Notes: a model not told the origin generated them from the letters alone. Positions 19,247 to 44,488 are shown, counted from the first letter of the stretch. The stretch: 64,000 bases of DNA from a virus (IMGVR_UViG_3300033148_005058:1187-65186), one strand, 5' to 3'. Numbers and translations are program-made.

Positions 19247-20392
19247 TTACCTCTCCCACCAGCTCTGGCGCTGCTCTTCCGCGACCTTACCCACCACGGT
19301 GATGTTGTCCACCTTCTCCACCATCCGCAGTGTTTCGGCGGGAAGACCGTAGAGCAAGTCCGGGCTATGTGTGGTGACGAAAAGTTGGGAACGCTCGCTA
19401 ATCTCCAGGAGCACATCACATAGGACGCCCAATGCTCTGGGATGGACAGTCAGTTCCGGTTCTTCAATGGCCAACAGAGAGCGCGGGGGGAATTGGTACA
19501 AAGCCGTGAGGAAACCGAGAAGTCGCAACGTGCCGTCGGACTCTTGGGTCAGCGGGAAGGCCGGCCCCCCTTGTCCGTGGTGTAGGCGGGTCACAAGGTA
19601 TCCCCCCACTTGAGCCACGGATATGTCGCTGATTCCCTCTACTGCTAGGGAAAGCGCATCGAGCAAAGCGTCAAAGGCCGGACGAGTCTGCTTTCCTCTC
19701 TTCATGCTTTTGAGGGCACTGGCCAGGTTCTGGGCGCGTTCGTCCAGGGGATAAGGGTTGGCAGGCTTTTGTGGTTCACGCAGGAGATTGGGATAAATGG
19801 TATAGAATCCCATATCGTGGATCAAGCGCTGGATGCTTCTTGCAAGGGGAGGAAAAGCCCGAGGCAGGAAGAGGATGAGTTGTTGCTCCGGGCCGACCAT
19901 TTCCCTTTTTTCCTTTTTCCTGTGCCTGTAGGATTCTTGCTCCGGATGTTGCTCGTCATAAGGCGGTTGTACCCAGCGTCCATTCTTGATCTCGTAGCCG
20001 AATGGCTTTCCCTCGCGCGTGCCGGCATATTCCTCCCACTTGACCTTGTACTCTCCTCGCCTGACGCTCCCTAGAGTGAAAGCATACCGCGCCTCGTCCC
20101 CACGAATACGGAAGCAGAGTTCGATGTATATGTCGTAAGGTCTCCCCTTAGATGACCACCGGCGCAGAGCGCTCATCCCGTGACGGTTGAGGATGGCGTT
20201 CTCCAATCCTAGCCTTAAAGTGTCACGCACAAAGCGCAGTACATCAATGATGTTGCTCTTGCCTGCACCGTTCGGCCCGACCAGTACCGTCAAAGGGCCA
20301 AAATCCAACGTCATCGTTTCGATACTGCGATAGTTTCTGACGTGAAGATGGGTGAGTATACTCCGCTCTCTTTTTTCTCGTTCCTCTTTCAT
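19247..20392 (-). CDS. ABC-type AAA ATPase (AAA_21/AbiEii-like), possibly C-terminally truncated
   Basis: VRNYRSI, Walker A GPNGAGKS, signature SDGT, Walker B AIEEPE, TTHSP. Confidence 0.85.
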   Translation of the reverse strand: MKEEREKRERSILTHLHVRNYRSIETMTLDFGPLTVLVGPNGAGKSNIIDVLRFVRDTLRLGLENAILNRHGMSALRRWSSKGRPYDIYIELCFRIRGDEARYAFTLGSVRRGEYKVKWEEYAGTREGKPFGYEIKNGRWVQPPYDEQHPEQESYRHRKKEKREMVGPEQQLILFLPRAFPPLARSIQRLIHDMGFYTIYPNLLREPQKPANPYPLDERAQNLASALKSMKRGKQTRPAFDALLDALSLAVEGISDISVAQVGGYLVTRLHHGQGGPAFPLTQESDGTLRLLGFLTALYQFPPRSLLAIEEPELTVHPRALGVLCDVLLEISERSQLFVTTHSPDLLYGLPAETLRMVEKVDNITVVGKVAEEQRQSWWER

Positions 20393-21176: not shown

Positions 21177-21486
21177 CGGACACCTCCTCGATCACTCTCA
21201 AAAGCGGCGCGGTTGAAACCCTACCGTCTCGATACATAAAGCTGCCTAGCTCAACTAGCTCTTTCGCCGCCTCCAGCAGCTTATCGAACCGCGCCTGGAG
21301 ATCGGGAGAATCTTGTTGAGGAGCATTAACTGCATCTAGTATTTTTGTTGCAAGTTTTTGAGCGATAGAGGTACGGGTACCATCGCGCCAAATAATATAG
21401 TGGGAATAGGCGTCAGCGTCATAACGTAACAATGCTCTTATTTCGTGCATATCTACGAGTGAGTTTCCGAACCTTGTTAGCTTCAT
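21166..21486 (-). CDS. Hypothetical protein
   Basis: AGGAG RBS; overlaps the polymerase 3' end. Confidence 0.5.
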   Translation of the reverse strand: MKLTRFGNSLVDMHEIRALLRYDADAYSHYIIWRDGTRTSIAQKLATKILDAVNAPQQDSPDLQARFDKLLEAAKELVELGSFMYRDGRVSTAPLLRVIEEVSDDQ

Positions 21487-23875
21487 TTTTATCTCCTACT
21501 AAATAAGTTATCATGTCTTTTTTGTCATACGTATAGCCAATTTCGATGTCCACAGCCGCTGTGAAATCGCTACCAAGAATAGTTGTACCTGCGTCCAGCA
21601 TCTCTTTAGAAATAAGACTTGCAACTTTATCAAGATGTTCTTTAGGAAACTCTACCAATAATGAGTCATGTGTAGGAAACAGAACTGCACCTCCATAGCG
21701 CTTTATCCACGCATTGGTTTTAATTAGGCTGAGTAGGCACAAGTCTGAGCTAGTCCCCTGTATAGGCATATTTATTGCTTGCCGCTTTATTTCTGGCCAC
21801 AGTTTTGCAAGTATTAGGGGGAAGCGTCTGCGTCGTCCTGTAGGCGTTGTGACATACTGTCTTGTCTTGACAAGGCTGTACTGTTCCTGCATCCATTCAT
21901 CGACGCCTAGCAGATTTATGACCAGGTCATGAATCCGCTTGGCTTCAGCATAAGAAACGCCTAATGCAGCAGCAATGCTGGGTGTCCCTCGTCCAAAAGC
22001 GACACCAAAATTGATCCCTTTGATTCCTACCCTATGCTTTGCGGAATCGTATTTATCACCATAAACATGCTCACCCACAAAGTTGTGAGGGTCCCCACCT
22101 GCTCGGAATAAATCCAAGAGTCCCTTGGATTGCGCCAATGCCGCCAATACCCTCAGTTCAGATGCTTTGTAATCGATAGTGAGAAGAACATTACCTTCCT
22201 CCGGCACCACCAAACTTCTGACCGGCCCAGTACGTGTAAGATTCATGATATTTGGTTGGCTACTGGCCAGCCGTCCTGTAACAGTGCCGAACAACTTCAA
22301 ACCTGGATGGACCCTGCCGTCTGATTCGGGATAGAGATTTTTAAGGTAGGTTCTGACAAGTTGATGGGCTTTTTTGTATTCTAGCATAGCGGTAGCGAAT
22401 TCGCTGCAAGGATAAATCGGTTGTGCCAAGCGCTCCATTTGACCCTTCGCAGTGGTTTTGTCTTTACGCCCATAAGGTACAGCAACGGGCTCAGTCTGTT
22501 CTTTAGGTAATGGCCTCGACTTCGAAAAGGGTGGCGCTTTGTAAATATCGTATAGAATATGCGCAACTTGTTTTGGCGAGTTTGGGTTGAACTCTGGAAG
22601 CTCAACAAGTGCTTGCATCTTAGCCCTTAGCGTAATTAGTGTCTGTTCTGCTTCAGCTTGAACATTCTTCAAGCGTTCCAGGTCGATCTTGACGCCTCTG
22701 ACAGACATATCTACTAGCGCATTGGTTCCTGGAATAAGCAGGTTGGTATAGAGCCGTTCGAGATCTTCCTCCGCCGCTATCTGTGGACGAAAGAGCTGGT
22801 GCAAGTCATAACCATAAGCTACGTCTCTTGCATTGTACTCCCATAAAGTTTCCTCTGGAATCAAAGAGTAGGAGCTATGTGCTTTGGAGATCCACTGTTT
22901 GATGTTAGCTTCCCAATCAGGCACCCTGAGAAACTTCATAGCCAATTGCTTCAGATCATGCGTGCCCAGACGCTCATCAAGAACATAATGCTCTAAGATT
23001 GTATCCTCTGAAATATAGGGATATGCTTGATACTGTGTGATCAGACGAGCGGCATCAAATTGAGCATTGTGACCGCCCCACTTTAGAGTTGGTGTGGCAC
23101 AGGCGCGTCGCAAAGCTGCGCGTACATCGGCATGGTCAAGCACTGCTTTAGGAAGCACCACTACATAATCTGATCCACATGTAAAAGCAATACTAAGAAC
23201 GTCAGTATCTAGGATATTGAGATTGCTAGTCTCGATGTCAAAATATACAAATGGTTGCTTTTTCAGCCAGGTCAGGAAACGTACTGCGCCCTCCGTAGAC
23301 AAAACAGAGTAGTTGCTAAAGGCTGGAGCAAGCTCCAACCTAGGCCCGCCATCCCGGAGCGCTTCCTCCAGATCATCTGCAAAGTCTGGCCAGTTACCTG
23401 GATGATATAAAATAGACGCTGGATGGTACACCGGAAACACGATGAAATCTTTCCACTGCAACGGTCGTCCATGTACTTTTGTAATTCCTTGTGTGCCAAG
23501 TCCAAGACCTTTCATAGCAGAGTTTCCAAGAGCTATGATAAGCTCAACACCACGCTCCCTAAATTCTTCTTCCAGAGTAGCACTACAGATAGCAAGCGCC
23601 TTCGTATCTGCAGCGTTATTCTTAGAGAACTGGCATTTGCAGGCATTGGTATAGTAGAACTCTGATGGCCTTTGTCCACAGGCGCGAATCGCCGCCCGTA
23701 AGAGTTGCCCACTTTGCCCCACAAAGGGCTGGCCTCGACGAACTTCAGTATTGCCTGGAGCTTCACCTAGAAAAGCTATCTTTGCCTCTGCCGGTCCAGA
23801 GGGAGGCACATACCTCCCTCTGGAACGCAAAGGGCATGTACCGCATTTTTGCATAGAAAATCTTCTTATACCCAC
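21419..23875 (-). CDS. polA: Family A DNA polymerase with N-terminal uracil-DNA glycosylase (family 4-like) domain and 3'-5' exonuclease
   Basis: UDG: CxxC, GEAPG, PFVG, YHPA. Exonuclease: DIET, HNAQFD, YNARD. Polymerase: TGRLAS, DYKASELR, KGINFG, HDS. Confidence 0.93.
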   Translation of the reverse strand: MGIRRFSMQKCGTCPLRSRGRYVPPSGPAEAKIAFLGEAPGNTEVRRGQPFVGQSGQLLRAAIRACGQRPSEFYYTNACKCQFSKNNAADTKALAICSATLEEEFRERGVELIIALGNSAMKGLGLGTQGITKVHGRPLQWKDFIVFPVYHPASILYHPGNWPDFADDLEEALRDGGPRLELAPAFSNYSVLSTEGAVRFLTWLKKQPFVYFDIETSNLNILDTDVLSIAFTCGSDYVVVLPKAVLDHADVRAALRRACATPTLKWGGHNAQFDAARLITQYQAYPYISEDTILEHYVLDERLGTHDLKQLAMKFLRVPDWEANIKQWISKAHSSYSLIPEETLWEYNARDVAYGYDLHQLFRPQIAAEEDLERLYTNLLIPGTNALVDMSVRGVKIDLERLKNVQAEAEQTLITLRAKMQALVELPEFNPNSPKQVAHILYDIYKAPPFSKSRPLPKEQTEPVAVPYGRKDKTTAKGQMERLAQPIYPCSEFATAMLEYKKAHQLVRTYLKNLYPESDGRVHPGLKLFGTVTGRLASSQPNIMNLTRTGPVRSLVVPEEGNVLLTIDYKASELRVLAALAQSKGLLDLFRAGGDPHNFVGEHVYGDKYDSAKHRVGIKGINFGVAFGRGTPSIAAALGVSYAEAKRIHDLVINLLGVDEWMQEQYSLVKTRQYVTTPTGRRRRFPLILAKLWPEIKRQAINMPIQGTSSDLCLLSLIKTNAWIKRYGGAVLFPTHDSLLVEFPKEHLDKVASLISKEMLDAGTTILGSDFTAAVDIEIGYTYDKKDMITYLVGDKNEANKVRKLTRRYARNKSIVTL

Positions 23876-30921: not shown

Positions 30922-31209
30922 CTATTTGCCTTTGGTACTTTTAAATAGCTTCTCCAAATCTCTACCTAACTCCTCGCCTGCATGGGTACAGATCGTGTAA
31001 TAGAACTTGCGCCCAATCTCGACACGCTCACATAGTTTGGCATCGCAGAGCTTCTGCAAATGGCGACGAATAGAGACCACTTCTTTAGGAGACCAAAGAA
31101 AATTATCTGCTACCTCCTGTGCTGTCATAGGGCTATCGTCGCGTAGCATATCCAGAATTGCCACCCGTATTGATGAACCCAGTGCTTTACACCTCATTGT
31201 TACTGTCAT
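30922..31209 (-). CDS. ArsR-family winged-HTH regulator
   Basis: KALGSSIRVAILDML..IRRHLQKLCDAKL..GRKFYY. Confidence 0.75.
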   Translation of the reverse strand: MTVTMRCKALGSSIRVAILDMLRDDSPMTAQEVADNFLWSPKEVVSIRRHLQKLCDAKLCERVEIGRKFYYTICTHAGEELGRDLEKLFKSTKGK

Positions 31210-31353
31210 TTTTTCTCCCGCCACGTAGAATATAATCGTCTATCGTCGTACCGTTAGTATCGGTAGGCCCCATTATTTTAGCGAGCCATGCAACGAGAAA
31301 CCAAGGTCCTACAGTAAAAGCTAAAGCGAGCAGTATTGAAAGAGCGTCATCCA

Positions 31354-32639: not shown

Positions 32640-33074
32640 TTATTCATTGATCTCCTCTTTCACGAGCTTAAAGATGGTGCCATATGGAAGGCTTTCTACT
32701 CTCTCATACTTTGGAGGGGGCTTAGGAACCAGGCGCTCAGGCGCAACAAGTCCTCTACGTGCTATTTCAGCATTAATTAGGTTGAGCCACTCTTTACAGT
32801 CCAACGCGTGATCCCACGCTTGCATCATTTCAGCTTCGGCACAGTCTCTAGCCATGTCACCGCGAGGCCCAAATACGGGATCGAAGTAAAACATGGTCAT
32901 CTCACGCACCTCACAGACCCGCCTGTCTAGCGTTCTGGCGATGTTCAAGAGATGCAGATCGTTTAGATCCTTGACGGCTACGCGGTGGCCGTTGATGTCG
33001 TTCCAAACAGGCCCCTTGTAGTCAAGGGCTGCTTCAGGCTCATGCGGCTCAAAGGTGATGGTTATTTTTGACAT
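32640..33074 (-). CDS. Hypothetical protein
   Basis: Start re-assigned to MSKIT.., embedded in the ATTATGTCAA motif. Confidence 0.5.
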   Translation of the reverse strand: MSKITITFEPHEPEAALDYKGPVWNDINGHRVAVKDLNDLHLLNIARTLDRRVCEVREMTMFYFDPVFGPRGDMARDCAEAEMMQAWDHALDCKEWLNLINAEIARRGLVAPERLVPKPPPKYERVESLPYGTIFKLVKEEINE

Positions 33075-33220
33075 AATCCTCGTTCCAGTAATCTGATCAA
33101 CCATGAAACAAAACGGGTAATCCAAGACATTTCAAAGTAGAGCTTCCCAGGGATATATATGTCTTCACCAACGCACTTGGCCCATTCCTGATCCGTCTTT
33201 TCACCTGTCATTGCATACCT

Positions 33221-38695: not shown

Positions 38696-38893
38696 TTATT
38701 CTTCTCCTCTTGCAGTCTTCGATAGCTGGGATATAACTTCATTACGCACTTTGTTAATTACACGTAGCTGTTCTTTTGCCCACGTTCGGCTCACCTGACG
38801 TGCGCCTTCCTGGGACCATAACAGCAACTCTGCATGTGCTTTCCACAGGTGGTCGGAGGCTTTTTGCAAACGTAGTGTACTTTGTGTTGACAT
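38696..38893 (-). CDS. Small helical hypothetical protein
   Basis: MST start within the TTATGTCAA motif. Confidence 0.5.
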   Translation of the reverse strand: MSTQSTLRLQKASDHLWKAHAELLLWSQEGARQVSRTWAKEQLRVINKVRNEVISQLSKTARGEE

Positions 38894-38895
38894 AA

Positions 38896-39153
38896 TTACA
38901 CTTTCTGCCAGGTTTTGGCTTTAATACTCTTTCTCACGTAACAACGCACTTGTGACTTTGTCCTCTTCAGGCGTATTATATCCACAATTGCCCGTGCCCG
39001 TATTAGCGGGCAATCGAGGATAACGGCCATCCCATCTAAGCGTTCTGGCTCTGCGTTGACTGTCTCCCCCACCACAGGCCCTACGACCCAGGTGCCGAGA
39101 AACCTGTTCTCGTGTGTGGCAAGATCGGCCACGTTGACTGCATACGTAATCAT
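38896..39153 (-). CDS. Hypothetical protein
   Basis: TAATG-coupled start, GGAG RBS. Confidence 0.5.
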   Translation of the reverse strand: MITYAVNVADLATHENRFLGTWVVGPVVGETVNAEPERLDGMAVILDCPLIRARAIVDIIRLKRTKSQVRCYVRKSIKAKTWQKV

Positions 39154-39440
39154 TATGTCAACTCCTGCATATTCATCAGTTTTACCTGTAGCTCTTCCGC
39201 TTCAAACAGGTTAGTCGCGTTTTGGCTAATACACGAGTGTACCTCTGTCAAGCAATCCTGTACCCTTTCCACTAATCTATCGGCTTCCTCAATATGCTCT
39301 ACACGAATGTTAGGTACGTGTATTCGATACTGAGCCAGCTCTGCTCCAGCTTTATCTAGCCAGTGTGCCACGCTTGCCAGCCTAGCTAGCTGCTTCTTTT
39401 GCGCTGTAATATATAAACTATTCCCATATATTTCTCGCAC
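39153..39440 (-). CDS. Small helical hypothetical protein
   Basis: Coupled to neighbours; ends ELT* through the motif. Confidence 0.5.
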   Translation of the reverse strand: MREIYGNSLYITAQKKQLARLASVAHWLDKAGAELAQYRIHVPNIRVEHIEEADRLVERVQDCLTEVHSCISQNATNLFEAEELQVKLMNMQELT

Positions 39441-39652
39441 TATGTCAACTCCCGTACTTCCAATGTTTCTGGGCGCCCTGCATTATCAAGTGCCAGCTTT
39501 GCAGCATATCTTGGTGGCATGTCATTGTCGTACCATGCTCTATATGGACAATCAGGCAGCTCATCAAGATAGAGCCCTGTATGGTAGGTGACCCACATCT
39601 CAACGCAAACCCGCCAGGCACGAAAGTTGGCATACATTTCATTGTTCAGCAT
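39440..39652 (-). CDS. Hypothetical protein
   Basis: G..LDELPD.PYR.WY..DM.P..AA pattern; AAGGAG RBS. Confidence 0.55.
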   Translation of the reverse strand: MLNNEMYANFRAWRVCVEMWVTYHTGLYLDELPDCPYRAWYDNDMPPRYAAKLALDNAGRPETLEVRELT

Positions 39653-39729
39653 AGCGCTCCTTCATGTTGGCATAATTGCTACAGCCTATGCCACAACAGG
39701 GTTGTGGCATAGGTCTAGTGACTACGTCG

Positions 39730-39918
39730 TTACTTGCGATACAGTGTCAGATTCAAAGAGCGCCCGTCAATTTTAGTTGCGCCGCCAGTTGTGGCAATGA
39801 CAAGCGTTTTGCCGGAGGCGGAAGGCGTGACTTGGACTTTTTCCTCGTCGGTTTCGATCCTGATGACAAGTGTGGTCCCATCCATTTCAGTCTTAATATT
39901 CTCCCTGTTGCTGATCAT
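39730..39918 (-). CDS. Small conserved beta-rich protein
   Basis: LVIRI..PSASGKTLVIATTGG motif. Confidence 0.6.
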   Translation of the reverse strand: MISNRENIKTEMDGTTLVIRIETDEEKVQVTPSASGKTLVIATTGGATKIDGRSLNLTLYRK

Positions 39919-39954
39919 GCCTCTCCCTTCATAGGACTAATGAATTGTGCGAAT

Positions 39955-40022
39955 AGCATAGCACGACTTCGCTCGCGATACATCGGCCATTATGCTTAAC
40001 TTGCGCTAGGCATAATGGCCTA
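39955..40022 (-). promoter_or_regulatory. Leftward promoter copy 1 (extended -10 plus 24-bp-spaced boxes)
   Basis: Boxes at 39983 and 40007; TG-C-TATGCT on the minus strand at 39955-39963. Confidence 0.6.
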
Positions 40023-40036
40023 GAACATGTGTTTTA

Positions 40037-40273
40037 TTATTCTAAAAGCGCCTCCCTTATTTCGTCTCTGTTGACTTTGGCAAAGTCGATACTCTCTCCG
40101 AGTACTCGGTCAAGCATGGCTACAAACTGCTCTAGCCAGCCCTCCCATTCGATGGTGCTTCGCCAGACTATACCTTTCCCCTCATTATAGGTGCTTTCAT
40201 CATTTGACAACCAAAGGAATGTGCACCATGTATCCCAGTTTGTCCAACCGTTGTATGTTTCATCTGTTGACAT
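40037..40273 (-). CDS. Conserved phage early protein (YNGWTNW-type)
   Basis: YNGWTNWDTW...LWLSNDE..Y motif. Confidence 0.6.
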   Translation of the reverse strand: MSTDETYNGWTNWDTWCTFLWLSNDESTYNEGKGIVWRSTIEWEGWLEQFVAMLDRVLGESIDFAKVNRDEIREALLE

Positions 40274-40282
40274 AATGCTCCT

Positions 40283-40516
40283 TTACTCTGTAGCTATAGG
40301 TGTTACTTGTGCATTACACTTAAGGCTATATGCGGCACGTGCGGCCACCTCGGTGACAGTATAGCCCAGTTGAGTAATGCCATACTTTGGGGCAAGATTC
40401 TGCAGCCAATTCTTGGCCCAGGCTATAACAAAGTCCTTTTGTGCCGCCGGTCGATCAATGAGGAACTGCCACTTGTGGCGGTTCGACTTCCTATAGTATG
40501 CTGTTATTACACGCAT
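40283..40516 (-). CDS. Hypothetical protein
   Basis: Start re-assigned to MRVIT. Confidence 0.45.
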   Translation of the reverse strand: MRVITAYYRKSNRHKWQFLIDRPAAQKDFVIAWAKNWLQNLAPKYGITQLGYTVTEVAARAAYSLKCNAQVTPIATE

Positions 40517-40517
40517 G

Positions 40518-40736
40518 TTACATGCCCCTTCGACTGTAGGGAACACCCTCCGTAATACGGCGGTGCATTCCCTCCTTAAACTGTTTAAGGATAGCTGCGC
40601 CGGTGCAAGAATACCAGCAGGTTAAACCGCTAGGGAAGGTTTGCTCTGGGTGTGCTTTGGCATATTTTACACCGGCGATATACTTTTGCAGCGACACCTT
40701 GCGACCTTCTGACAAGGTGACATAACGACTTGACAT
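40518..40736 (-). CDS. Hypothetical protein
   Basis: AAGGAG RBS; MSS start within the motif. Confidence 0.55.
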   Translation of the reverse strand: MSSRYVTLSEGRKVSLQKYIAGVKYAKAHPEQTFPSGLTCWYSCTGAAILKQFKEGMHRRITEGVPYSRRGM

Positions 40737-40745
40737 AATACTCCT

Positions 40746-40926
40746 TTATTTTTGGGCACTCGGTAGCTTTGCCATGGAGGGTACCAGCCCATCCATGACT
40801 GCGATAGCGCTTATATTCTCGGCACTTTGGGCACTATTCTTCTCCATCCAATACCTGCAACAGTTTTGTGCCGCAAGTATGGCACCGTCCACAATGTCTT
40901 ATATGCTTGCCACTAGAATCAAGCAT
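40746..40926 (-). pseudogene. Zinc-ribbon gene with in-frame TAG (40834-40836)
   Basis: MLDSSGKHIRHCGRCHTCGTKLLQVLDGEE*CPKCREYKRYRSHGW; GGGAG RBS; 3' end uncertain. Confidence 0.55.
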
Positions 40927-41233
40927 AATGGTACTCCCTTGTATCTGTTGGTGGCCCTATGTGGACCGTTACCCAAGTCTCCACTAAGAATGTATCTTCG
41001 CAGTCGTCATACTTTTGCCGTTTGAGAAAAGCCCAGCCGATAGGACGGGCAATAGCGCCTTCGTCAATATAGACTTTGCCGATACACCGTCCGTATTCGC
41101 CCAAAAAGGACGCATAGACTTCACCTAGAGTATAGCAGTTACTCTTGAAAGGATCATCACCCCCATAACGATACCCTTCTGTTCTGTTGACATAATCTAC
41201 TTGAACCCATAGTGCCGCATCCTGCCCTTCCAT
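40919..41233 (-). CDS. Hypothetical protein
   Basis: EYGRCIGKVYID..IGW.F.KR..Y.D..ETWV pattern; AGGAG RBS. Confidence 0.55.
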   Translation of the reverse strand: MEGQDAALWVQVDYVNRTEGYRYGGDDPFKSNCYTLGEVYASFLGEYGRCIGKVYIDEGAIARPIGWAFLKRQKYDDCEDTFLVETWVTVHIGPPTDTREYHYA

Positions 41234-41307
41234 TGTACCTTCTCCTTTATATTGACATAATCTCCACATGCTTGGCTATAATTCCCATTATAGCCAAGGT
41301 CTGAAGA

Positions 41308-41568
41308 CTATGACTGCTTAAACTTCTCAAACATATCAAGTTGGCCCTCAAGAAACGCAGCTATTTCACGCGCGGATACTCTGTACCATCTAGGCCAGTA
41401 AAAGTCTTCAGCTCCGTGCTCACTGGCAATTTCTCGCAAAGCATAGCCGCCATAACAAGAGACGAAGTCTAAGTTAATATGGCCCACCGCGTAAGATTCT
41501 GAAGGGCGGCCTAGTGCCTCGTTCAGATTGGCCGTCAACTTTCGCAGATATGCTCTCGTGATTCTCAT
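41308..41568 (-). CDS. Hypothetical protein
   Basis: MRIT...L....LN..YGGY.L pattern; GGAG RBS. Confidence 0.55.
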   Translation of the reverse strand: MRITRAYLRKLTANLNEALGRPSESYAVGHINLDFVSCYGGYALREIASEHGAEDFYWPRWYRVSAREIAAFLEGQLDMFEKFKQS

Positions 41569-41611
41569 GATACCTTCTCCCCTCTGTATTTGTATGCTTA
41601 ACTCTGATTAT

Positions 41612-41695
41612 AGACTACCATAGAATAGCGATTAGCACATCGGCATTTTGGCCTATTCTGGTCTAGGCATTTTGGCCTATATCCTACTAGGCATA
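41612..41695 (-). promoter_or_regulatory. Leftward promoter copy 2
   Basis: Boxes at 41640, 41664 and 41688 (partial); TG-G-TAGTCT at the same spacing as copies 1 and 3. Confidence 0.55.
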
Positions 41696-41699
41696 TATA

Positions 41700-42480
41700 C
41701 TTAGACTTCTGGATAATTATGTAAAGCCCCGACTTGGCTTTTTTTCGCAAAACTATCAAGACTAGCAAAACTGAACAGGCTATAACGCAGGGAAGGACCG
41801 GCAAAAGTGTAGATTATTGCGTTATTTTGTGGCCTAACAGTGTAAAATAGGCTGTTGTACTGTGACACGTTATGTCAAGACGTTTTTCGCATAGTAAAAC
41901 AGCGACAAACTGGTGGACAGGCGATATAATAAGGTAAAACGGGCTAGGTGTAATTTTATTTCATTATTTGATTATTTTATTTCTAGAATATAGAAACGAG
42001 CGAAACTGGAGTTTGGCGGATTTTTGCTCCTTCGCCAATAATCGGTCAAGTTGGGCACATACGCGCTGGGATGTGCTCTATATTCTAAGAATAAAATAAT
42101 AAAATAATCAAATATATTTATATATACAAGGTTCCTTTCTTGTCTTCGTGCCTTCGTTTGCTGTTTTCTCGACGATAAAAACAGCCCGATATTTGATTAT
42201 TTGATTTTCTTGCAATTGTTGACTATGTTCGTCAACAATACAAAGACTATATACATAAAATGCTATTCTTGAGTAACCTTGTCAACATTTGAAAAAAAAT
42301 CAAATAATCACTTTGAACCCTATCTATACTTGTCATGACTATTCCATTGTTGTTGACTGCCAGCTATAACAAGGCTATTGCAGTTTATTGAACAAATAAT
42401 TGTAACAATCGAAAAGTCGTTACAAAGCGGGCAGTTTACTTGACTACAACCGCCCGCTTATGCTTTGATTGTGGTATACT
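41700..42480. other. AT-rich non-coding region with inverted repeats (candidate origin or genome end)
   Basis: ATTTGATTATTTTATTTCTAGAATATAGA (~41966) has an imperfect inverted copy at ~42077-42113; further ATTTGATTAT units; no credible ORF. Confidence 0.5.
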
Positions 42481-42484
42481 TTGA

Positions 42485-42709
42485 CTAGAATGCTAGTGGC
42501 ACACGTTGATAAACTGACGTTACTTGAGGCACGTATCGCCGACATCCCCAAACTTCAAGGTATTCACCTTCCCCGACTTTGACAAATAAACTGCCGAAAG
42601 TGTCAAAGTCCTCAGACTTGACATAATTCTTCATAATATAGTCTATTTCTTGTGAATCCGTGACAAGAGCATACTCTGGCCCAAAGGTTGACGCTTTACG
42701 ACTTGACAT
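42485..42709 (-). CDS. Hypothetical protein
   Basis: MSS start within the motif, GGGAG RBS. Confidence 0.55.
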   Translation of the reverse strand: MSSRKASTFGPEYALVTDSQEIDYIMKNYVKSEDFDTFGSLFVKVGEGEYLEVWGCRRYVPQVTSVYQRVPLAF

Positions 42710-42711
42710 AA

Positions 42712-42990
42712 TTACTCCCTTTTGATACGTGCTATCCCTAGCGCGTCAAGTGAAGCATCACAAGACGCGCCGAGAAGGTGCTTCTCCGCTTGACGTAACG
42801 ACTCATAAGCTTGCCCTAGATCGCGCTCTATGCTGGGATATGCGGTCATTATGGTACAGAGTGTCACTTCGAAGTCTTGGACAGCATCCAGCATGGCATA
42901 TAATTTATGGTTTACGTCGGACAATATGGGATTGTAAGGTATGCGGCTGTTAACTCCACGCGCCCAACGCAAAGCTTCCTCGGTTGACAT
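42712..42990 (-). CDS. Small helical hypothetical protein
   Basis: GGAGCATTATGTCAAC start context. Confidence 0.55.
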   Translation of the reverse strand: MSTEEALRWARGVNSRIPYNPILSDVNHKLYAMLDAVQDFEVTLCTIMTAYPSIERDLGQAYESLRQAEKHLLGASCDASLDALGIARIKRE

Positions 42991-42999
42991 AATGCTCCC

Positions 43000-43332
43000 T
43001 TATATTATGGTAAGATAGCCTGTTTCCTCTAGTGTAGCCTTATCCTCTTCTGATAGCTCAACATCCTCTGTAACAGGCTCAACAATGATGGCATAGTTTG
43101 GCCCACCGTAGCCCTCTTTGGGTTCCAAGTCCAGCCTACCGTCACGTCTTATATGCCCACTAGCAGTGTAGCCATTGCGTTGTCGGTCGATGTCGAACGT
43201 TTGTTCTAGTATATCTTGCTTATCCCATATCGCAAGATACTCTGCTTCACTTTTCGTTTTGCACAGTATAGACGAGTGTGGCATATATCCAGGCATCGAC
43301 GTATGGCACACCCAAAGTCTCCGAGTTGACAT
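43000..43332 (-). CDS. Hypothetical protein
   Basis: GGAGCATTATGTCAAC start context; MPGYMP motif. Confidence 0.55.
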   Translation of the reverse strand: MSTRRLWVCHTSMPGYMPHSSILCKTKSEAEYLAIWDKQDILEQTFDIDRQRNGYTASGHIRRDGRLDLEPKEGYGGPNYAIIVEPVTEDVELSEEDKATLEETGYLTII

Positions 43333-43362
43333 AATGCTCCTTTACGGTTTATGTTTGTACCC

Positions 43363-43408
43363 TGGCCTAGCATGGTAAACTTTGGGACACGCTTACCATG
43401 CTAGGCCA
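43363..43408. repeat. Perfect 16-bp inverted repeat (hairpin)
   Basis: TGGCCTAGCATGGTAA..TTACCATGCTAGGCCA. Confidence 0.75.
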
Positions 43409-43427
43409 AAGGCGTAACTTGACATAA

Positions 43428-43613
43428 CTATATGTGCTTGCTGTCTGTCTGTTCGAGATACGGCTCTAGTAACTCTAGCACGCCGAAGAGTATTCTATGA
43501 AGGGCTCGTATTGCGTCAATGTCGGCAGGCTCCACGTCAGCCAGTTCCAATTCATGACGCGCCTTGTGAATAGCATAGCGTGCAGCAATTAGATGTTTTT
43601 CCTGTACTAACAC
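43428..43613 (-). CDS. Small helical hypothetical protein
   Basis: AGGAG RBS and GTG start. Confidence 0.5.
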   Translation of the reverse strand: MLVQEKHLIAARYAIHKARHELELADVEPADIDAIRALHRILFGVLELLEPYLEQTDSKHI

Positions 43614-43634
43614 GATTCTCCTTCTACAGTATGA

Positions 43635-43799
43635 CTATAACACGTCAAGTAGGTTGTTAATTGCCCATATCCGTATAGCTGCTTCAATTTTGTCGGCTCC
43701 CGTTGTAGCAAAGTCATACTCGAATGAATAGCGCTCCAAAGCGTCATATAGGACAATGCGCAAGGCCACTATCGTATGCCCAGCATATATTGTTGACAT
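43635..43799 (-). CDS. 54-aa hypothetical protein (below the ORF-track cutoff)
   Basis: GGAGCATTATGTCAAC start; MSTIYAGHTIVALRIVLYDALERY..LLDVL*. Confidence 0.5.
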   Translation of the reverse strand: MSTIYAGHTIVALRIVLYDALERYSFEYDFATTGADKIEAAIRIWAINNLLDVL

Positions 43800-43838
43800 A
43801 ATGCTCCCTTCGTGTTACGCTTCTTGTGCTAATTCCTC

Positions 43839-44054
43839 TTATGCCCAGCAAGGTTTATCTTTGCGCAAACGTGCACACTCTGCGTTAATCATTGCACCCA
43901 TCGCCACATCAATGTCAACAAGCATTGCTTGCCATCTTTGCATAACAAGCGCTTCCGGTCCAGCATATTCACGTATGCTCCCCTGCAATTCCTGCTCCGC
44001 GTCTTGTAGTTTGCCCTGCGCACGTTGTAGGTAGTATAATTGCCCCGCCTTCAT
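43839..44054 (-). CDS. Small helical hypothetical protein, first gene of the leftward arm
   Basis: GGAGGAG RBS. Confidence 0.55.
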   Translation of the reverse strand: MKAGQLYYLQRAQGKLQDAEQELQGSIREYAGPEALVMQRWQAMLVDIDVAMGAMINAECARLRKDKPCWA

Positions 44055-44148
44055 GATTCTCCTCCCGTTATGTCAAATAAGGTTTGTGTCCCAATTATGT
44101 CAACGTGCTAGGTCCGCACGATTGTTTGTTATTGCCTATGGCGACATC

Positions 44149-44240
44149 AGCATAGCACACGTTGTGTGTTTTCGTATCGGCCAAATGGCGTATTTGTGTC
44201 TAGGCAGTTTGGCCTATCCCTATCTAGGCATAATGGCCTA
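44149..44240 (-). promoter_or_regulatory. Leftward promoter copy 3
   Basis: Boxes at 44177, 44201 and 44225; TG-C-TATGCT on the minus strand at 44149-44157. Confidence 0.6.
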
Positions 44241-44488
44241 TGACATTTGTTCTATTTACATAATGCTTCGCTTTGCAACTGGCTGCAATATAATGATATA
44301 GGCTAGCTGTAATTGTCTCGCAGGCTAGAAAACTGCAAAGTAAAGAAAGAAATAGTGGGTGGGCTCTGTAGATGATGTGGCCTTCCTATTTTAAACTCGC
44401 CCTACTTTTTGGTCGCATACATTTTTAGTAACGGTTTCGCCCACTGAGCCGAGTTTGCTACGGTTTACTGGAGCGCAAAAGGCCAACC

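Follow-up and report, generated by a model that had tools for sequence, protein, structure and literature searches.

Organization of the early region

The DNA analyzed here comprises bases 1187-65186 of the 65,186-bp virus record IMGVR_UViG_3300033148_005058, which has direct terminal repeats. This whole 64,000-nt stretch is called the window below, and the element in question is a nine-base word, TTATGTCAA, which is repeated among its early genes. The genes diverge from a point at ~44.05-44.9 kb. The terminase, glycosyltransferases and structural genes lie rightward, while the leftward arm begins with about 17 small open reading frames (ORFs) without known family, followed by a DNA methyltransferase, an exonuclease, a Sak4-like annealase, a primase, a family A DNA polymerase and a helicase. 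Protein family scans against Pfam and/or PHROGs covered 48 of the 85 listed ORFs. The early and phage-specific proteins gave DUF matches only, and no integrase or repressor family was detected among the scanned ORFs, so the phage looks virulent.

An array of one word at early gene boundaries

The window holds 16 exact copies of TTATGTCAA, while 0.73 are expected (shuffle mean; shuffled windows had at most four copies and none of 100 shuffles reached 16), and the full 65,186-bp record contains the same 16 copies and zero additional. Fifteen of them lie within 38887-44103 (5.2 kb), at the head of the leftward early operons, and the outlier is at 33068. A count by eye in an earlier, sequence-only reading of this DNA had given these same positions, and it is borne out by the word count with shuffles. 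That reading had also listed three one-mismatch copies. Those at 39440 and 40717 were recovered, but the number did not hold: there are 16 in the window (seven of them in 38.5-44.3 kb), which is about chance level genome-wide (exact plus one-mismatch copies, 32 versus 16.3 expected).

Twelve copies are on the minus strand, the sense strand of the early genes, and four are on the plus strand. The sense copies comprise eight that coincide with a same-strand start codon, two inside ORFs (41187 and 42618) and two that are intergenic and carry a mini-ORF (41252 and 43419). The inverted copies are at 39153, 41870, 44068 and 44095, the last three being non-coding and the last two, named A2 and A1 below, lying in the leader of the first early gene. 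Altogether 14 of the 16 copies are at gene boundaries or intergenic, with two in the leader of the first operon. The exact copies that are inverted or inside ORFs number six in 5 kb, versus <0.1 by chance. The individual copies and one close variant are listed here (G001 and L011 are related viral contigs).

33068..33076, minus strand: outlying copy on the ATG of gene 32640-33074 (MSK...), with an extra TCA codon relative to the G001 homologue, whose start is ATGAAAATT (MKIT).
38887..38895, minus strand: copy on the ATG of gene 38696-38893, adjoining the TAA stop of gene 38896-39153.
39153..39161, plus strand: inverted copy, sense strand reading GGAGTTGACATAATG; its TAA stops gene 39153-39440 (ELT*), and it overlaps the ATG of gene 38896-39153.
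39440..39448, plus strand: inverted one-mismatch copy, sense strand reading GGAGTTGACATAGTG; its TAG stops gene 39440-39652 (ELT*), and it overlaps the GTG start of gene 39153-39440.
40267..40275, minus strand: copy on the ATG of gene 40037-40273 (DUF7249, MSTDE...).
40730..40738, minus strand: copy on the ATG of gene 40518-40736, with the one-mismatch copy 40717 13 nt downstream.
41187..41195, minus strand: copy inside gene 40919-41233, GAT TAT GTC AAC (D-Y-V-N); the L011 homologue has AAC TAT CTC AAC.
41252..41260, minus strand: intergenic copy 9 nt upstream of the AAGGAG Shine-Dalgarno (SD) sequence of gene 40919-41233, with a 3-codon mini-ORF (M-S-I-stop).
41870..41878, plus strand: inverted intergenic copy at the edge of an AT-rich non-coding region; the same 11-mer GTTATGTCAAG occurs in the equivalent L011 region.
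42618..42626, minus strand: copy inside gene 42485-42709, AAT TAT GTC AAG (N-Y-V-K).
42703..42711, minus strand: copy on the ATG of gene 42485-42709 (DUF6839); the L011 homologue starts with ATGCAAACG.
42984..42992, minus strand: copy on the ATG of gene 42712-42990, unchanged in a ~94%-alike contig of sequencing run X1.
43326..43334, minus strand: copy on the ATG of gene 43000-43332; the L011 homologue starts with ATGCCAAAG.
43419..43427, minus strand: intergenic copy adjoining the TAG stop of gene 43428-43613, with a 10-codon mini-ORF and then the hairpin 43363-43408.
43793..43801, minus strand: copy on the ATG of gene 43635-43799.
44068..44076, plus strand: inverted copy A2 in the leader of the first early gene, ending 2 nt upstream of the SD sequence GGGAGGAG of gene 43839-44054.
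44095..44103, plus strand: inverted copy A1, 27 bp away from A2 in that leader and immediately behind a small hairpin.

The placement of the start-codon and in-ORF copies, and the inverted copies at 39153 and 39440 that give two proteins ELT* ends, had been described correctly from the sequence alone; the 39440 variant repeats the layout of 39153 with TAG and GTG. The start of gene 40919 is at 41233, not at 41269 as an earlier account had it. An 11-bp hairpin precedes copy 41252.

The base before the word is a purine in 16/16 copies, and every sense copy (12/12) includes an ATG. In the eight start copies the serine codon is always TCA, the two bases preceding the ATG are always TT, and the SD spacing is fixed (GGAG-N5-ATG), the resulting N-termini being MST, MSS or MSK. 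GGAG is found upstream mainly of these copies, as ribosome-binding site, and once upstream of the mini-ORF copy 41252. A longer identity, the full 16-mer GGAGCATTATGTCAAC, is shared by four copies (40267, 42984, 43326 and 43793), and ATTATGTCAAC occurs six times. There are 50 TTGACA hexamers in the window, and TAA follows in 16 of them.

Imposition of the word on coding sequences

Judging from comparison with homologues, the word is imposed on coding DNA at the nucleotide level. Gene 32640 begins M-S-K-I-T while its G001 homologue begins M-K-I-T, the extra TCA codon standing directly after the ATG. Similarly, gene 40037 (DUF7249) begins M-S-T-D with an extra TCA codon, its homologues mostly starting M-T/A/S-D, and an ATGTCAA start was found at 0 of the 39 DUF7249 homologue loci examined (40 loci were found; L395, whose match begins at base 1, was left out). 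The L011 homologues of genes 42485 and 43000 begin with different sequences. The two in-ORF copies arise by codon choice; for the conserved N-Y-V of gene 42485, AAT TAT GTC is used here versus AAC TAC GTG in the L011 homologue. The genes that carry the word are unrelated to each other: all-against-all blastp among 18 early proteins gave no match better than E 0.04, which rules out paralogy of these genes.

Absence of the array from related genomes

Five viral contigs with TerL 77-82% identical were identified as relatives, and a metagenome scan gave no further long relative. These relatives hold 1-4 copies of the word and lack the array. The complete one (G001, 67.7 kb) has four copies, three of them in its early region, and it lacks homologues of 13 of the 17 ORFs between 38696 and 44054, which is thus a hypervariable early region. 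A further contig, L171, has a primase-like domain in common with this phage.

Closer sequences came from sediment DNA run X1 (0.06 share of words; no RNA run was listed with it), in which six small contigs, ~94-100% alike, spanned 6 of 30 bins. The copies at 40267, 42703 and 42984 are unchanged in them. One X1 contig (depth 2.4) diverges at 40283, directly upstream of the AAGGAGCATTATGTCAAC junction cassette, where it has a different upstream gene whose TAA end precedes the same cassette.

In other viruses the word shows no comparable pattern. In IMG/VR, 94 stretches contain the exact 15-mer GGAGCATTATGTCAA, with a single match each among the matches listed. Pairs of TTGACATAA spaced 10-40 nt apart occur in at least 116 viral stretches, and some contigs have 5-12 copies; the reversed motif, taken as control, gave at least 119 stretches with a similar copy distribution. 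Because the reversed word gives the same picture, multi-copy contigs elsewhere are background and not evidence. A widespread or universal host-factor site was rejected in this way, pairs of the control word being about as common among the matches listed.

The leader of the first operon and its predicted promoter

The array is accompanied by a set of other elements.

43363..43408, minus strand: hairpin with perfect 16-bp arms between genes 43428-43613 and 43000-43332, with GTGTCCCAA (43382-43390) in the loop.
44086..44094, plus strand: second GTGTCCCAA, with A1 and A2 on either side; as UUGGGACAC in the leader RNA, it is complementary to the loop of the hairpin.
44149..44256, minus strand: predicted leftward early promoter P1, with TAGGCC...GCCTAG boxes and the extended -10 element TGcTATGCT (44157-44149).
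41639-41695 and 39981-40038, leftward: further copies P2 and P3 of the promoter unit, with the same boxes.

The promoter-like unit (TAGGCC-N5-GCCTAG boxes plus extended -10), of which this genome has three copies, is kept in L009 and L011, and the one-mismatch variant of the word at 44255 is part of a promoter-upstream element also found in L011. From their sequence, the P1-P3 boxes would act as promoters, and the putative winged-helix protein of 30922-31224, also present in G001, is a candidate binder of these palindromic boxes. The leaders of L009 and L011 have neither A2 nor the TTGACATAA pair as a whole. Since the promoter is kept while the leader pair and the array are missing in relatives, the array is a lineage-private feature, added to a regulatory frame common to all of them.

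The hairpin 43363-43408 is strongly folded (-40.6 kcal/mol, z -7.1), a stability that none of 200 shuffles reached. It has no U-tract, and its arms contain the promoter-box half GGCCTAG. An RNase III-type processing site is one possible role for it, a protein-binding palindrome another.

A duplex DNA site as the favoured reading

Overall, the word looks like a private control signal for the early gene set and not a borrowed host XerD site. We tentatively favour the reading of RTTATGTCAA as a private duplex site for a phage-made factor in stoperator-like control or block of the early operons, to which we give somewhat less than an even chance. Operator or stoperator sites for a phage protein had been offered in the sequence-only reading as an alternative, and this is the part of it that we would take up, with the same reserve; its overall interpretation is partly supported. 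We infer that a protein binds the word, that the binder is of phage origin and that binding blocks transcription.

In such a mechanism, the word would be a cis-regulatory word private to this phage lineage, and it would be read as duplex by a sequence-specific factor that the phage itself makes once infection has begun. Through this factor, the three leftward early operons (44.1 to 38.7 kb) would be singled out for common regulation, most probably shut-off. RNA polymerase would be stopped by occupied sites every ~350 bp and by the pair that lies behind the promoter and ahead of the first ribosome-binding site, in the mode of the cluster A mycobacteriophage stoperators. Because the early region is nearly without intergenic space, the sites would be threaded into gene boundaries by way of the word's own codons. 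In sense orientation its ATG would serve as start codon and force M-S-T/S/K N-termini, and in inverted orientation its TAA would serve as stop codon and force ELT* ends. A word with ATG one way and TAA the other way could thus be placed on gene boundaries with little burden on the coding sequence.

Exact copies in both orientations, in ORFs, in intergenic positions and in the leader point to duplex recognition. The core is kept whatever its context, as is the preceding purine. Furthermore, two sites follow the conserved early promoter, ahead of the first SD sequence, and L009 and L011 keep that promoter without the sites.

Cluster A stoperators are the nearest model for such sites. They are described as 13-14 bp asymmetric sites with 20-30 genome-wide copies, mostly in one orientation and in short intergenic spaces (PMC6550527, PMC9283540). 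A lineage-private array fits the reported finding that stoperator specificities differ between related phages (PMC6550527). Early-operon confinement, a pair behind the promoter and private specificity resemble the cluster A stoperator/operator system (L5 gp71 type), with which the array shares a short, asymmetric, multi-copy word. Its placement mostly at gene boundaries and mostly in one orientation, with copies at the early promoter or leader, may be a further likeness, though four of the 16 copies are inverted. The word described here is 9-10 bp, not 13-14; it has 16 copies with 15 in 5.2 kb, not 20-30 over the genome; one quarter of the copies are inverted and one half are in start-codon register. 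Stoperator phages are temperate and have a cognate repressor, whereas this phage has a virulent look and none was detected among the scanned ORFs. The core of the word contains TGTCAA (the reverse of a -35 hexamer), as does the L5 consensus.

Several findings weigh against a DNA site. No binder was found in the family scans of 48 of the 85 ORFs, where the sole regulator-like match was a weak winged-helix one at 30922-31224 (25.7 bits, cut-off 27), and G001 has this protein too, yet lacks the array. No integrase or repressor family accompanies the virulent look, unlike in stoperator phages, and the product of the first gene is predicted as a helical hairpin in an Atlas model, not as a known DNA-binding fold. 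Of the sense copies, 8/12 stand in exact start-codon register at normal SD spacing, and two inverted junction copies lie exactly between SD sequence and start codon; this register is unneeded for a DNA binder and looks translational. The 12:4 orientation ratio is looser than in stoperators as reported, and the site spectrum is sharp, with 16 exact versus 7 one-mismatch copies in the region. Finally, the array is known from one genome only, to which X1 adds just near-identical fragments.

Possible translational control and pairing with the leader

In the main rival reading, UUAUGUCAA would serve on the early mRNAs as a tag for translational control, analogous to the start-associated sequences (SAS) of cluster K mycobacteriophages. 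We consider this possible, though on the unlikely side. The reader of the tag would be an RNA-binding protein or a nuclease, or else the mirror copies (UUGACAUAA) on the same transcripts. In the mirror version, an unstructured first-operon leader with two anti-tags would pair with the tagged starts and throttle translation, as a c4-like antisense circuit without a separate small RNA gene. In favour of a tag, 8 of the 16 copies are a start codon at fixed SD spacing, the word brings an ATG wherever it stands in sense, and two inverted copies fill the SD-to-start spacer. Against it, there are four exact inverted copies (plus the 39440 variant), which a signal read on RNA only would not give, and the relatives do without tags and anti-tags alike.

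Pairing with the leader has some positional support. The leader is predicted to be unpaired where the two anti-tags lie, and A1, flanks included, is complementary over 11 nt to ATTATGTCAAC, the commonest tag. In addition, GTGTCCCAA has just two exact copies in the 64 kb of the window, oppositely oriented: one is in the loop of the strongest local hairpin, beside tag 43419, and the other, which is complementary to that loop, is in the leader. The order of the blocks is collinear with antiparallel pairing. The hairpin window ranks 1st of ~550 for predicted duplex energy with the leader (-34.6; mean -17.4, sd 4.6), and the flank similarity around GTGTCCCAA was matched by 23 of 2000 shuffles. These duplex scores are not independent evidence, because tag/anti-tag complementarity follows from the inverted copies themselves. 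Moreover, the anti-tags are not in stable hairpin loops (folds at 41870, 39153, 39440 and the leader, z -1.0 to +0.8), those within the start regions of two genes (39153 and 39440) are awkward for an RNA model, and the one-mismatch variants show no G:U-tolerant pattern. No Rfam family reached the gathering score, the best at E up to 5 being unrelated and far below the cut-offs. A self-contained antisense circuit, in which the first-operon leader (two mirror tags and the hairpin-loop box) would tune or shut translation of 8-10 tagged genes as one regulon, with 39153 and 39440 adding two start regions, is put forward as an unlikely variant.

Two other RNA-level systems invite comparison. The c4 antisense RNA of phages P1 and P7 (immI) carries boxes complementary to the ribosome-binding region and lies on the same transcript as its target. 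Short complementary boxes on the targets' own transcript, covering ribosome-binding regions, and two regulator boxes side by side are found here as well, but there is no significant fold and no Rfam C4 match, and the targets would be many, not one. T4 RegA and RegB control early translation-initiation regions and act on RNA only. A shared signal on many early start regions, which would allow joint shut-off, is the likeness to them; here there are four exact inverted copies, and no RegA- or RegB-like family was detected among the 48 proteins scanned.

SAS are described as lying 3-7 bp upstream of the start and containing the SD core, with the consensus GGGATAGGAGCCC (PMC3203893, PMC12699233). 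They have been known since 2011, and the 2025 paper still treats their function and reader as unproven (PMC12699233). The likenesses are asymmetric repeats in 11-19 copies at non-structural genes only (here 16, all in the leftward arm), ties to the ATG starts of unrelated gene families (here eight copies) and rare copies that are inverted or inside ORFs. The present word differs in sequence and contains the start codon and the next four bases; SAS are conserved across subclusters, while this array is missing from relatives; and SAS have at most one inverted copy per genome, while here 4/16 are inverted. The closest kinds are cluster K SAS and stoperators, and the array fits neither of them completely.

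It is an unusually clean case: an exact word with the start codon inside it is imposed on unrelated genes by an added codon or a synonymous choice, and an inverted pair stands in the leader. This combination makes the question of DNA site versus RNA tag directly testable, and either outcome would show how a virulent phage marks its host-takeover genes for joint control.

Improbable or rejected readings: recombination linker, start context, XerD and promoter

The junction cassette TAA-RGGAG-CATT-ATG-TCA-AC might also be a linker, a short homology for swapping, inserting or losing cassettes of the early region, like the PeSL (promoter and stem-loop) cassettes of T4-type phages and perhaps aided by the Sak4 annealase and exonuclease of the phage; we regard this as rather improbable. 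The region is hypervariable, with 13 of its 17 ORFs lacking a G001 homologue, the ~20-nt cassette is common to 4-5 starts, the orphan tags with mini-ORFs (41252 and 43419) look like relics, both recombination genes are encoded, and the similarity break of the X1 contig lies at 40283, upstream of AAGGAGCATTATGTCAAC (one contig, depth 2.4). However, phage mosaic joints fall at gene boundaries anyway, so this break says little; for homologous exchange, 9-20 nt is very little; neither the in-ORF copies, which arise by synonymous choice, nor the two leader copies are cassette joints; and equally mosaic relatives do without the word. PeSLs share with the array repeated motifs that border small early ORFs in a hypervariable region, but they are described as composites of promoter and stem-loop of ~50-70 bp (PMC2839356, PMC4122927), whereas here the -10 element was not found and most copies have no stem-loop.

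It is still less probable that the word has no dedicated function, being a favoured start context (ATG TCA AC, M-S-T) spread by duplication or drift, with the other copies as chance or hitch-hikers. M-S-T N-termini are also frequent in G001 (L119-L122), in 8 of 123 crude start calls, three of which are ATGTCAAC. The codons for serine and threonine vary there, and the tag may have evolved from an already favoured start context. Against a mere context stand the invariant TCA serine and the TT before the ATG in the eight start copies, the excess of inverted and in-ORF exact copies over chance, and the unrelatedness of the tagged genes.

The leading proposal of the sequence-only reading was a coat of host XerD on the early DNA, bound to the copies as half-sites and serving SMC eviction, protection of ends or Xer cassette shuffling. 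The likeness on which it was built is real in print. Published XerD arms, namely that of the predicted dif of Frankia alni and those of the two Burkholderia mallei chromosomes, have this 9-mer as their core. The 11-nt arm TTATGTCAAGT of Frankia is matched by 40730, 42618, 42703 and 43419 and TTATGTCAAAT of Burkholderia by 44068, so that the full 11-bp arm is matched in 5/16 copies; XerD away from dif is cited as an SMC unloader in PMC12322038. The reading is nevertheless very improbable, and none of the tests made supports a XerD coat. As had already been noticed, there is no XerC arm: at 6-bp spacing 0/16 copies end in TAA and the three printed XerC arms are matched at 2-7 of 11 positions, while four TAA at 7-bp spacing are stop codons of upstream genes. 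A central region is lacking as well, sites stand on start codons, and the outer arm positions 10-11 vary (T at position 11 in 7/16 copies), which differs from dif and from XerD-only SMC-unloading sites. Relatives of the same architecture lack the array, and among the matches listed, 9-mer pairs in other viral contigs are no commoner than the reversed control. The G+C content of the phage is 44-52%, versus ~68% in the taxa printed with C at arm position 7, which would argue against this reading. Presence of a host protein on 15 early sites from the first minute would also be expected to hinder early transcription of the phage itself.

Searches of several kinds did not name a host. Megablast against cultured phages gave no match, no tRNA genes were found, the best TerL match by tblastn was 38% identical, and the Atlas clusters nearest to PolA are viral. 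The methyltransferase matched species genomes at 43-47% over ~80 residues (Acidobacteriota, Limnocylindria and Brocadiaceae metagenome-assembled genomes), which is not usable for host assignment. The array also cautions against taking every TTATGTNAA for a Xer site.

A promoter or -35 element, suggested earlier as a sigma decoy, was rejected, as no -10 hexamer lies 16-18 bp after TTGACA at the right spacing, and a 4-of-6 -10 hexamer with A2 and T6 occurs at 2/16 copies, both on the antisense strand.

Other features of the genome

Within the early region, 41880-42480 is a 600-bp AT-rich non-coding stretch with inverted repeats of 44 and 47 nt, and its L011 equivalent is made of inverted AATGGAATAA triplets; this stretch may be a replication origin. 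On the plus strand at 41717-41750, a terminator-like hairpin and a T-run come immediately after a one-mismatch copy, TTATGTAAA; this may be a short rightward transcript antisense to the early operon.

A second word, GCACAGGGG, occurs genome-wide in 13 copies versus 0.54 expected (e.g. 509, 11361, 17149, 34519, 44972 and 62382) and is common to the relatives L011, L012, L013 and L009. The 8-mer CACAGGGG has 17 copies, the C-rich strand being the local gene sense strand in 13/17. The second word could be a Chi-like, nick-site or modification word.

Among the replication genes, the family A DNA polymerase (21419-23875) has as nearest Atlas clusters those with a uracil-DNA-glycosylase-superfamily domain in 90-99% of cluster members. 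The ORF at 19247-20392 encodes a 381-aa AAA_21/SMC_N-type ATPase without homologue in G001, which resembles defence-system ATPases, here carried by a phage.

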